In this document: positions 9,318 to 59,866 of the stretch, piece after piece
How positions within the stretch are numbered: position 1 is the stretch's first letter
Layout: every line of letters begins with the position of its first letter
From: Escherichia coli
GTDB taxonomy: Bacteria > Pseudomonadota > Gammaproteobacteria > Enterobacterales > Enterobacteriaceae
NCBI RefSeq assembly: GCF_003334385.1
Contig: NZ_QOWN01000029.1
DNA: 59,866 nt
Strand: one strand, 5' to 3'
Position numbers and translations under genes: made by a program
Notes under the pieces: generated by a model
Told to the model about the DNA's origin: nothing
Database searches by the model: none
The model's input: only the letters and a program-made list of their open reading frames with translations

Positions 9318-10457
9318 ATGAGCGCGGGAAGCCCAAAATTCACCGTTCGCCGCATTGCGGCTTTGTCACTGGTTTCGCTATGGCTGGCAGGCTGTTCTGA
9401 CACTTCAAATCCACCGGCACCGGTCAGCTCCGTTAATGGCAATGCGCCTGCAAATACTAATTCTGGTATGTTGATTACGCCGCCGCCGAAAATGGGGACG
9501 ACGTCTACAGCGCAGCAACCGCAAATTCAGCCGGTACAGCAGCCACAAATTCAGGCTACTCAACAACCGCAAATCCAGCCAGTGCAGCCAGTAGCTCAGC
9601 AGCCGGTACAGATGGAAAACGGACGCATCGTCTATAACCGTCAGTATGGGAACATTCCGAAAGGCAGTTATAGCGGCAGTACCTATACCGTGAAAAAAGG
9701 CGACACACTTTTCTATATCGCCTGGATTACTGGCAACGATTTCCGTGACCTTGCTCAGCGCAACAATATTCAGGCACCATACGCGCTGAACGTTGGTCAG
9801 ACCTTGCAGGTGGGTAATGCTTCCGGTACGCCAATCACTGGCGGAAATGCCATTACCCAGGCCGACGCAGCAGAGCAAGGAGTTGTGATCAAGCCTGCAC
9901 AAAATTCCACCGTTGCTGTTGCGTCGCAACCGACAATTACGTATTCTGAATCTTCGGGTGAACAGAGTGCTAACAAAATGTTGCCGAACAACAAGCCAGC
10001 TGCGACCACGGTCACAGCGCCTGTAACGGTACCAACAGCAAGCACAACCGAGCCAACTGTCAGCAGTACATCAACCAGTACGCCTATCTCCACCTGGCGC
10101 TGGCCGACTGAGGGCAAAGTGATCGAAACCTTTGGCGCTTCTGAGGGGGGCAACAAGGGGATTGATATCGCAGGCAGCAAAGGACAGGCAATTATCGCGA
10201 CCGCAGATGGCCGCGTTGTTTATGCTGGTAACGCGCTGCGCGGCTACGGTAATCTGATTATCATCAAACATAATGATGATTACCTGAGTGCCTACGCCCA
10301 TAACGACACAATGCTGGTCCGGGAACAACAAGAAGTGAAGGCGGGGCAAAAAATAGCAACCATGGGTAGCACCGGAACCAGTTCAACACGCTTGCATTTT
10401 GAAATTCGTTACAAGGGGAAATCCGTAAACCCGCTGCGTTATTTGCCGCAGCGATAA
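9318..10457 (+). CDS. nlpD: Lipoprotein NlpD (LysM / M23 peptidase domain, amidase activator)
   Basis: 379-aa ORF, lipobox LAGCS, proline/glutamine-rich repeats (QQPQIQP x4), LysM and C-terminal M23 domain. Confidence 0.95.
9919..9954 (+). promoter_or_regulatory. Candidate major rpoS promoter inside nlpD (-35 TTGCGT, 17-bp spacer, -10 TATTCT)
   Basis: Motif inspection; the predicted start (~9954) lies ~567 nt upstream of the rpoS ATG, matching my recollection of the long rpoS 5' UTR. Not verified. Confidence 0.4.
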
Positions 10458-10519
10458 ATCGGCGGAACCAGGCTTTTGCTTGAATGTTCCGTCAAGGGAT
10501 CACGGGTAGGAGCCACCTT

Positions 10520-11513
10520 ATGAGTCAGAATACGCTGAAAGTTCATGATTTAAATGAAGATGCGGAATTTGATGAGAACGGAGTTGAGGTTTTTGACGAA
10601 AAGGCCTTAGTAGAAGAGGAACCCCAGTGATAACGATTTGGCCGAAGAGGAACTGTTATCGCAGGGAGCCACACAGCGTGTGTTGGACGCGACTCAGCTT
10701 TACCTTGGTGAGATTGGTTATTCACCACTGTTAACGGCCGAAGAAGAAGTTTATTTTGCGCGTCGCGCACTGCGTGGAGATGTCGCCTCTCGCCGCCGGA
10801 TGATCGAGAGTAACTTGCGTCTGGTGGTAAAAATTGCCCGCCGTTATGGCAATCGTGGTCTGGCGTTGCTGGACCTTATCGAAGAGGGCAACCTGGGGCT
10901 GATCCGCGCGGTAGAGAAGTTTGACCCGGAACGTGGTTTCCGCTTCTCAACATACGCAACCTGGTGGATTCGCCAGACGATTGAACGGGCGATTATGAAC
11001 CAAACCCGTACTATTCGTTTGCCGATTCACATCGTAAAGGAGCTGAACGTTTACCTGCGAACCGCACGTGAGTTGTCCCATAAGCTGGACCATGAACCAA
11101 GTGCGGAAGAGATCGCAGAGCAACTGGATAAGCCAGTTGATGACGTCAGCCGTATGCTTCGTCTTAACGAGCGCATTACCTCGGTAGACACCCCGCTGGG
11201 TGGTGATTCCGAAAAAGCGTTGCTGGACATCCTGGCCGATGAAAAAGAGAACGGTCCGGAAGATACCACGCAAGATGACGATATGAAGCAGAGCATCGTC
11301 AAATGGCTGTTCGAGCTGAACGCCAAACAGCGTGAAGTGCTGGCACGTCGATTCGGTTTGCTGGGGTACGAAGCGGCAACACTGGAAGATGTAGGTCGTG
11401 AAATTGGCCTCACCCGTGAACGTGTTCGCCAGATTCAGGTTGAAGGCCTGCGCCGTTTGCGTGAAATCCTGCAAACGCAGGGGCTGAATATCGAAGCGCT
11501 GTTCCGCGAGTAA
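10520..11513 (+). pseudogene. rpoS: RNA polymerase sigma factor RpoS (sigma-S), frameshifted allele
   Basis: ATG at 10520 encodes [10 protein letters not shown]...EEEP then reads CAG TGA (stop at 10628-10630). The rest of RpoS (from ...[14 protein letters not shown] to ...EALFRE) continues in the +1 frame to 11513. The span is 994 nt = 993 + 1, consistent with a single extra C in the run at 10622-10625. Confidence 0.85.
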
Positions 11514-11526
11514 GTAAGCATCTGTC

Positions 11527-11560
11527 AGAAAGGCCAGTCTCAAGCGAGGCTGGCCTTTTC
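11527..11560 (+). terminator. Rho-independent terminator downstream of rpoS
   Basis: GC-rich hairpin AAAGGCCAG...CTGGCCTTTTCTG followed by T-run. Confidence 0.7.
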
Positions 11561-11569
11561 TGTGCACAA

Positions 11570-11600
11570 TAAAAGGTCCGATGCCCATCGGACCTTTTTA
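11570..11600. terminator. Bidirectional hairpin terminator between convergent rpoS and ygbN
   Basis: AAAAGGTCCGATG-CCCATCGGACCTTTTTA: perfect stem flanked by A-run and T-run. Confidence 0.7.
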
Positions 11601-11606
11601 TTAAGG

Positions 11607-12971
11607 TCAAATTACCGCCCATACGCACCAGGTAATTAAGAATCCGGTAAAACCGAGAATGGTCGTTAACACTGTCCAGGTTTTCAGACCGTCTGCTACC
11701 GATAACCCCAGATATTTGGTCACAATCCAGAACCCTGAGTCATTAATATGTGACGCACCAAGCCCACCAAAGCAGGCTGCCAGCGTCACCAATACGCACT
11801 GAATCGGATTCAATCCCATCACCGCTTCTGAGAGTAACCCGCCGGTTGTCAGTATTGCTACGGTTGCTGACCACTGCGATGCACGCAGCGCCAGTGAAAT
11901 AATAAATGCGGCTGGTAACAGAGGCAGGTCAATCATTTGTAGCATGTTGGCAAGGGCTTTGCCGACGCCCGATTCCACCAGCACTTTGCCAAATACCCCT
12001 CCAGCACCAGTAACCAAAATCACTACCGCCGCAGTAGGAAGCGCTGAGCCCATAATGTCGCTGGTGTGTTGTAAGCTCCAGCCGCGACGTAAAGCCAATA
12101 ACCAGAATGCCAGCACCAGCGCAATCATTAGAGCTACCATTGGTGAGCCGATCAGCTGTAGCGTACCAAGCAGGGGATGCGAAGGCGGCATCAGTGTTGC
12201 GGAAACCGTACCCGCCATGATAATCGCGATAGGAATAACAATTAGCGAGGTGACCAGCGCGACGCCCGGTGGATTTATTTTATCGCTTAATTTTGTCGCG
12301 CCTTCCTCACTGGCCGGAGCCAGTTGCATCTGTTCCAGTACTTCTACTGACATCGCATATTGGCGCTTATTGATTATTTTCGCTGCAAAGTAGCCAACAA
12401 CCCCTACGGGAATAGAAATCGCAATACCGATGATGGTTAGCCAGCCGATGTCTGCGTGGAGTAACCCCGCTGCGGCGACAGGGCCTGGATGCGGCGGTAC
12501 CGCCACGTGAACAGTGAGCATGATCCCAGCGACAGGCAGGCCAAATTTGAGTGGCGATATTTTGGCAACCTTGGCAAAACCGTAAATGATTGGCGCAAGA
12601 ATAATAAAGCCGACATCAAAGAAGACGGGAATACCGAGGAAGAACGCTGCCAGAGTCAGCGCAGCGATAGTTCGTTTGTCACCTAACTTGCGACTGAAAT
12701 AATTAGCCAGTGACTCTGCACCACCAGAGTGTTCGATCATACGCCCCAGCATAGCGCCCAGACCAATAATAATAGTGACGGAACCAAGCACACCGCCCAT
12801 CCCGGCGATCATCACTTTACCCACTTCGCCCGCCGGTATACCCGCCGCAAGTGCGACTAACAGGCTGACGAGGAGCAGAGCAACGAATGGTTGTACCTTT
12901 GCCTTGATGACCAGCAGCAACAGCATGATTACGCCAGTTAACGCAATGCATAACAATGTAATTGTGGACAT
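11607..12971 (-). CDS. ygbN: GntP-family permease (putative tetronate / acid-sugar transporter)
   Basis: 454-aa polytopic membrane ORF resembling gluconate:H+ symporter family. Confidence 0.85.
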   Translation of the reverse strand: MSTITLLCIALTGVIMLLLLVIKAKVQPFVALLLVSLLVALAAGIPAGEVGKVMIAGMGGVLGSVTIIIGLGAMLGRMIEHSGGAESLANYFSRKLGDKRTIAALTLAAFFLGIPVFFDVGFIILAPIIYGFAKVAKISPLKFGLPVAGIMLTVHVAVPPHPGPVAAAGLLHADIGWLTIIGIAISIPVGVVGYFAAKIINKRQYAMSVEVLEQMQLAPASEEGATKLSDKINPPGVALVTSLIVIPIAIIMAGTVSATLMPPSHPLLGTLQLIGSPMVALMIALVLAFWLLALRRGWSLQHTSDIMGSALPTAAVVILVTGAGGVFGKVLVESGVGKALANMLQMIDLPLLPAAFIISLALRASQWSATVAILTTGGLLSEAVMGLNPIQCVLVTLAACFGGLGASHINDSGFWIVTKYLGLSVADGLKTWTVLTTILGFTGFLITWCVWAVI

Positions 12972-59427: not shown

Positions 59428-59520
59428 GGTGAGGTGGCCGAGAGGCTGAAGGCGCTCCCCTGCTAAGGGAGTATGCGGTCAAAAGCTGCATCCGGGGTTC
59501 GAATCCCCGCCTCACCGCCA
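59428..59520 (+). tRNA. serV: tRNA-Ser (anticodon GCU), 93 nt with long variable arm
   Basis: GGTGAGGTGGCCGAGAGG...CCCCTGCTAAGGGAG...GGTTCGAATCCCCGCCTCACCGCCA; cloverleaf with anticodon GCT and encoded CCA. Confidence 0.95.
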
Positions 59521-59523
59521 TTT

Positions 59524-59600
59524 GCATCCGTAGCTCAGCTGGATAGAGTACTCGGCTACGAACCGAGCGGTCGGAGGTTCGAATCCTCCCGGATGCACCA
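59524..59600 (+). tRNA. argV: tRNA-Arg (anticodon ACG), 77 nt
   Basis: GCATCCGTAGCTCAGCTGGATAGAGTACTCGGCTACGAACCGAGCGGTCGGAGGTTCGAATCCTCCCGGATGCACCA; anticodon ACG, encoded CCA; only 3 nt after serV. Confidence 0.95.
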
Positions 59601-59798
59601 TATTCTACGTACTTTCAGCGATGAAGGTATGGAAGAGGTGGCGGTAATAACCGCAGGCACCAGGGAGGATAACGTTGCTTTAGCAACGGCCCGAAGGGCG
59701 AGCCGCAAGGCGAGTAATCCTCCCTGATGCACCATCTCTTACTTGATACGGCTTTAGTAGCGGTATCAAAAAATCTGCAGTAAAGTAAGTTTCCCGAT

Positions 59799-59866
59799 GC
59801 ATCCGTAGCTCAGCTGGATAGAGTACTCGGCTACGAACCGAGCGGTCGGAGGTTCGAATCCTCCCG
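59799..59866 (+). tRNA. tRNA-Arg (anticodon ACG), second copy, truncated by the window edge
   Basis: Identical to argV over the 68 nt present; the window ends before the last 9 nt. Confidence 0.9.

Follow-up and report, generated by a model that had tools for sequence, protein, structure and literature searches.

The stretch of Escherichia coli DNA analysed here, which we call the window (59,866 nt of contig NZ_QOWN01000029.1), keeps the nlpD-rpoS gene order: the nlpD open reading frame (ORF) occupies 9318-10457, and the start codon of rpoS, ATG, follows at 10520 on the plus strand. The nearest complete genome has the same arrangement. The native Shine-Dalgarno (SD) element of rpoS, AGGAG, an element named in earlier work (PMC2831331), lies on the plus strand at 10508-10512, from -12 to -8 relative to the start codon. 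Its calculated duplex with the 16S tail has an energy of -6.5 kcal/mol. Just 3' of the rpoS stop codon, at 11532-11559 of the same strand, a GC-rich inverted repeat (GGCCAG...CTGGCC) followed by TTTT looks terminator-like by eye.

The reading frame of rpoS is broken close to its 5' end. Where the native gene has CCC for Pro35, the window has CCCC at 10622-10625, and the gene spans 994 nt instead of 993. A first-pass annotation, made from the letters of this DNA, had claimed exactly such a +1 frameshift through an extra C in a C-run, with the same count of 994 nt, and direct alignment with two complete genomes, both of which read CCC, bears it out. Read from the ATG, the codon CCC (10622-10624, Pro35) is followed by CAG (10625-10627, Gln36), TGA (10628-10630, codon 37) and TAA (10631-10633), the last two forming tandem stops of the shifted frame at 10628-10633. 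The resulting 5' ORF (10520-10630) has 36 codons, M1-P35 being native and the last one Q36, and then TGA. The frame that starts from 10521 runs without interruption from S36 (AGT, 10626-10628) to E330 and ends with the stop codon at 11511-11513; this rest of rpoS (10626-11513) is intact and out of frame with the ATG. Translation hence agrees with the annotated arrest of the canonical frame at codon 37 and with the intact remainder in the +1 frame. The codons CAG TGA had also been named correctly, and only their position has to be amended, from 10626-10630 to 10625-10630. The uninterrupted frame of 330 codons that characterizes a functional rpoS is thus broken at codons 36-37.

Taking one C out of the run at 10622-10625 in silico gives back a 330-amino-acid RpoS. 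As a test of gene identity, we required the whole protein to score above the curated cut-offs of the NCBIfam RpoS equivalogs: the repaired product reaches 604.6 bits with NF004207 (cut-off 394) and 480.7 bits with TIGR02394 (cut-off 378.7). Codon 33 is GAG (Glu), the common state outside K-12 (PMC2700278 Table 2), so the window does not carry the amber-33 allele of K-12. As the next gene, ygbN, lies on the strand opposite to rpoS, no downstream gene is affected.

Beyond the tandem stops, the signals for an internal start are all present. A second SD element, AGGGAG, lies at 10663-10668 of the plus strand (native nt +143 to +148), in the secondary translation initiation region of the gene, and is the named internal SD of rpoS (PMC2831331). 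With the 16S tail it forms a duplex of -7.4 kcal/mol, stronger than that of the native element, and it stands 11 nt before the GTG of codon 54. This GTG is found at 10680-10682, where the first-pass annotation had supposed it, with the premature TGA 50 nt upstream. It opens an ORF of 277 amino acids that reaches the native stop codon (10680-11513) and would encode delta 1-53 sigma-S with regions 1.2, 2, 3 and 4; Pfam matches Sigma70_r1_2, r2, r3 and r4, and the product scores 552.9 bits with NF004207 (cut-off 394). The first possible restart in the rpoS frame is the TTG of codon 40 (10638-10640, plus strand), 8 nt after the TGA, with an ORF of 291 amino acids. Its SD match is weak, the anti-SD duplex having only -3.3 kcal/mol, and we ranked it below GTG54.

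We compared the locus with complete RefSeq E. coli genomes. The 1201-nt region from 10400 to 11600 matched 5421 of 5426 of them, the best matches aligning 1201 bases of the window with 1200 bases of the genome at 99.9% identity. An 81-nt probe centred on the C-run matched 5255 complete genomes, none of them at 100% identity, and from this absence we conclude that the extra C is not a chance feature. The first-pass annotation had proposed an alignment to a reference with a count of the Cs; performed three ways, it gave CCCC in the window, CCC in the nearest complete genome, YZ_2_2 (NZ_CM146015.1, with its RpoS annotated as WP_000081550.1), and CCC in FDAARGOS_1058. The latter, the top-ranked match, was considered as a carrier of the same allele and rejected, having CCC and a 16-bp duplication. 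This tandem duplication, AAAAGGCCTTAGTAGA, lies in rpoS (NZ_CP065970.1, 2111352-2111747), also shifts the gene to the +1 register and should lead to the same TGA; RefSeq labels the gene as a pseudogene ('frameshifted').

Over the whole window, YZ_2_2 differs by 12 substitutions and by 2 indels, of which one, the rpoS C, is the sole homopolymer indel in 59.8 kb; the other, at 59707, falls within the repeated spacers of a tRNA-Arg cluster. Apart from the extra C, the rpoS DNA of the two is identical, and 3 kb upstream plus the gene itself contain 0 further differences from this CCC-bearing relative. The lesion is confined to rpoS and the flanking locus is wild type, as in recurrent alleles of rpoS loss or attenuation.

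An exact look-up of the 36-amino-acid stub returned 15-16 contigs; all records of it come from Logan assemblies of public runs. Ten of the stub-encoding loci were fetched, and every one of them carries CCCC. A public gene caller chose the 277-amino-acid ORF in 8 of these 10. Together they represent at least 9 haplotypes: across about 4 kb, 10-77 substitutions separate nine CCCC loci from the window and from one another, and the haplotype of the window is identical to that of YZ_2_2, which has CCC. The downstream flanks of rpoS are of three kinds, with either ygbN, a MarR/UbiX/UbiD set or a flavodoxin/metallo-beta-lactamase set. With at least 9 haplotypes and three kinds of flank, the insertion arose independently, at least 9 times, and such recurrence in unrelated lineages is again what is seen with loss or attenuation alleles of rpoS.

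The explanation that we find best overall, and regard as probable, is a real c.105dupC insertion that essentially abolishes full-length sigma-S and leaves the allele leaky. A genuine gain of one base at codon 35 would have changed CCC to CCCC, which is equivalent to c.105dupC. Ribosomes that start at the normal ATG would then make a peptide of 36 residues and halt at the TGA at 10628-10630. From what is established about sigma-S, we infer that the full-length protein of 38 kDa would be essentially lost, and most of the general stress response with it. Rather than being an absolute null, the allele probably leaks, by two putative routes: a restart at GTG54 and a ribosomal slip on CCC-C.

In the first route, initiation through the internal AGGGAG and GTG54 would give delta 1-53 sigma-S with partial activity. 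The sequence is compatible with it: the stop at codon 37 lies upstream of codon 54, and the internal SD, the GTG and the open frame downstream are all intact. Precedents for the internal start are reportedly found in Subbarayan and Sarkar 2004, Rajkumari and Gowrishankar 2002 and Gowrishankar et al. 2003, which we know through papers that cite them. According to PMC2763269, amber-33 strains free of suppressors make delta 1-53 sigma-S from the secondary region, and the protein is partly active; that text cites Subbarayan and Sarkar 2004 and the Gowrishankar laboratory. Like the window, the K-12 amber-33 allele (rpoSAm) has a premature stop a few codons upstream of AGGGAG and GTG54, with delta 1-53 sigma-S as the expected product. 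The two differ in that amber-33 is a nonsense substitution, suppressible by supE, whereas the window has a frameshift with a stop 4 codons further downstream.

A still closer parallel is offered by ECOR54, whose rpoS has gained an A after nt 83 and is frameshifted after K28. The register is shifted in the same way and the insertion is likewise upstream of codon 54; by our derivation, its ribosomes should halt at the same TGA (native nt 108-110), giving a stub that also has 36 amino acids. ECOR54 is listed as a producer of truncated RpoS, reportedly by way of the secondary initiation region, in contrast to ECOR strains with other early stops, which had none (PMC3074542 Table 1). Contrary to the allele of the window, it has its insertion in an A-run, 22 nt closer to the start codon, with no CCC-C and no route back to the wild-type protein, and T163C in its background eliminates TTG55 while sparing GTG54. 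With their stops upstream of the internal start, ECOR54 and K-12 amber-33 are the two alleles that the present one most resembles. For the re-initiation at GTG54 that the first-pass annotation had thought conceivable by analogy with amber alleles, the start signals are there and ECOR54 provides a nearer precedent than the amber; the product itself is a predicted one.

It could also be that the mutation is real and the allele a complete null, with both the GTG54 restart and the CCC-C slippage negligible and no functional sigma-S made; we hold this to be unlikely, while giving it some weight. It would fit the majority of ECOR strains with early stops or frameshifts (for example L11 amber, D26 amber and E42 amber), in which RpoS is not detectable (PMC3074542 Table 1), as well as the clearly lower catalase and glycogen of amber-33 strains (PMC2763269). 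The truncated RpoS reported for ECOR54, derived to stop at the very same TGA, argues against it, as does an internal SD that matches the 16S tail as well as the native one does. The folding of the mRNA may act either way. A predicted hairpin pairs 10623-10635 with 10655-10668, the internal SD included, and could block de novo initiation; a ribosome terminating at 10628-10630, however, would sit on the 5' arm of this hairpin and open it. That the hairpin explains why the restart depends on an upstream stop is a weak idea, as the predicted fold does not exceed shuffled sequence in stability (z = -0.92) and the extra C shifts it by only 0.4 kcal/mol. In addition, restart could be lowered if the early stop makes the mRNA less stable or provokes Rho-dependent termination. 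We consider some residual activity plausible.

The preferred reading, a real and leaky insertion, requires that the extra C be present in the cells. The first-pass annotation had left two options, a genuine mutation or a homopolymer error. Comparison of the sequences favours the former: the C is very probably a real mutation, and an error of sequencing or assembly in a strain with a truly wild-type rpoS is improbable. An error would be of an ordinary kind, since the gain of one base in a homopolymer is the commonest type of assembly error, and it would agree with the exact allele being carried by 0 of the 5255 matched complete genomes. Yet the window contains 713 homopolymer runs of at least 4 bases, including 47 of at least 6, far more error-prone than C3 or C4, and no other run is altered relative to YZ_2_2. 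About 1.5% of these runs belong to rpoS, and this is about the chance that a single random error would hit the gene, in which genuine disruptive mutations are also to be expected more than in any other. A generally error-prone assembly was rejected, given one homopolymer indel in 59.8 kb.

An independently built contig repeats the insertion. The first base of the window lies 20 nt within an IS421 end and the last within the repeated tRNA-Arg cluster, and ends placed at repeats are the look of a short-read contig. The Logan contig SRR7819145_72 equals the window at all 6111 nt, with both the CCCC and a SNP in ygbN (G367W). As this SNP is private, the identity indicates that a different assembler, working on the same strain, again arrived at CCCC. 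If SRR7819145 is the window's own read set, this agreement excludes an artefact of the assembler or of polishing, not a systematic read error. Different sequencing runs moreover show the allele in 9 or more unrelated backgrounds, which also speaks against an error. As to the origin of the indel, a mutator background was rejected as far as the window shows: mutS (853 amino acids) is intact, with a synonymous difference only from the nearest genome.

The second putative route of leakage was overlooked in the first-pass annotation: CCC-C is a classic site of +1 ribosomal slippage, and a slip on it would restore wild-type RpoS. A peptidyl-tRNA-Pro that rarely moves one base forward would read Pro35 and then AGU (Ser36), giving a protein identical to the wild type in an amount well below 1% of normal. 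CC[C/U]-[C/U] motifs are particularly slippery and cause up to 1% of +1 frameshifting in E. coli at codon 2, where the published slippage on CCC-C peaks, being lower elsewhere (PMC4519876). The route may consequently be negligible at codon 35, and its yield there is likely far below 1%. The classical CCC-C sites, known from studies of tRNA-Pro, m1G37, sufA and sufB, involve the same re-pairing one base forward without energetic penalty; they are however engineered or his-operon reporters, whereas slippage in rpoS is a prediction of the present analysis. Two nucleotides upstream of the C-run there is an SD-like GAGG (-6.0 kcal/mol).

One may go further and see in the +C allele a leaky, reversible attenuator of sigma-S instead of a dead gene, a view that we find rather improbable. 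Termination at the TGA at 10628-10630 would open the predicted hairpin that hides the internal SD, so that delta 1-53 sigma-S is made; slippage on CCC-C would add a trickle of the wild-type protein, and the short C-run would permit true reversion. If this were true, the many N-terminal stubs that end at the same TGA would represent a class of 'tuning' alleles that is favoured and lies 5' of the internal start.

Finally, a programmed +1 recoding site of the prfB type, with full-length RpoS made by regulated frameshifting, is scarcely credible: CCC-C is a bona fide +1 slippery motif, offering a slippery P-site codon, and the GAGG 2 nt upstream recalls the SD-like stimulator of the prfB +1 frameshift, but the codon in the A-site of the 0 frame, CAG, is an ordinary sense codon and neither a stop nor a hungry one (the stop comes one codon later), the insertion is a rare derived state that occurs here and there on unrelated haplotypes, and the site is not conserved, with 0 of the 5255 matched complete genomes carrying the exact allele and in-frame CCC in the two aligned, which effectively refutes it.

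Nutrient limitation, prolonged stationary phase and storage in the laboratory all select for alleles of rpoS loss or attenuation. The +C allele is known in kind as one of this polymorphism, and public read sets of many lineages already contain it. In the described cases, from ECOR, K-12 stocks, stab cultures, chemostats and succinate selections, the same sort of small lesion is found in a wild-type nlpD-rpoS locus in unrelated lineages; nonsense, frameshift and deletion alleles all occur, and the gain or loss of one base in a short run, such as +A269, +A518 or the deletion of A668, are typical. Unlike the catalogued alleles, the exact +C at codon 35 was not found named in the searchable literature, and is met with in the 15-16 public read-set assemblies.

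Collections commonly contain rpoS null alleles, and laboratory conditions select for them (PMC3074542, PMC3484664, PMC3240573, PMC2700278). In the ECOR collection, 9 of 31 strains have nonsense or frameshift alleles (PMC3074542); frameshift mutants segregate fast in stab cultures (PMC3240573), and selection on succinate yields rpoS mutants at about 1e-8 (PMC2700278). Natural isolates that were handled with care are seldom without RpoS, and those that lack it gained the mutation in the laboratory (PMC3484664).

On the preferred reading, the strain is best treated as deficient in sigma-S or strongly attenuated for it, a state that alters stress resistance, stationary-phase physiology, catalase and glycogen phenotypes and nutrient scavenging. 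The allele also hints at laboratory storage or nutrient-limited selection in the history of the lineage. In annotation, rpoS should be marked here as a frameshifted pseudogene, neither the stub of 36 amino acids nor the remainder of 277 being a new protein. Nothing new in kind is added to what is known of rpoS polymorphism.

Distinct N-terminal stubs of rpoS form a series in the protein database (...ALVRRGTQ, ...ALSRRGTQ, ...KGLSRRGTQ and others). All run to the same out-of-frame TGA, and each is recorded on 5-31 contigs. One N-terminal stub, AEQ26385.1, comes from a laboratory mutant selected on succinate. A stub of 70 amino acids, also on record, is the product that we derive for the loss of one C from the same run.

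Some features of the window outside rpoS deserve mention. The SNP in the adjoining ygbN, on the minus strand at 11873, changes codon 367 from GGG to TGG in a transporter of the GntP family. This non-conservative G367W occurs in none of the 3356 complete genomes that have ygbN, and SRR7819145 has it. Two private changes, the rpoS C and G367W, hence lie within 1.25 kb. Three other non-synonymous differences from the nearest complete genome are hypC S35N (26106), hycC F439L (30146) and ascB V465M (35691), with the ORFs intact.

Read from its first ATG, the ORF of nlpD has 379 amino acids; the RefSeq version, of 1095 nt (364 codons), begins at a later start. In one CCCC-bearing lineage (L008) nlpD has 363 amino acids, so its length varies between lineages.

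Near the beginning of the window, after the end of IS421 (IS4-like), a short CRISPR array of type I-E style extends from 98 to 375, with 5 repeats of GTGTTCCCCGCGCCAGCGGGGATAAACCG at a spacing of 61 nt. In the nearest genome IS421 adjoins the CRISPR array, and some relatives have cas genes in that place. At the opposite end, 59428-59866 is occupied by a tRNA-Ser/tRNA-Arg cluster with repeated spacers (91-94% identity). ARAGORN adds an overlapping tRNA-Arg(tcg) on the minus strand at 59544-59615, a call that looks spurious.
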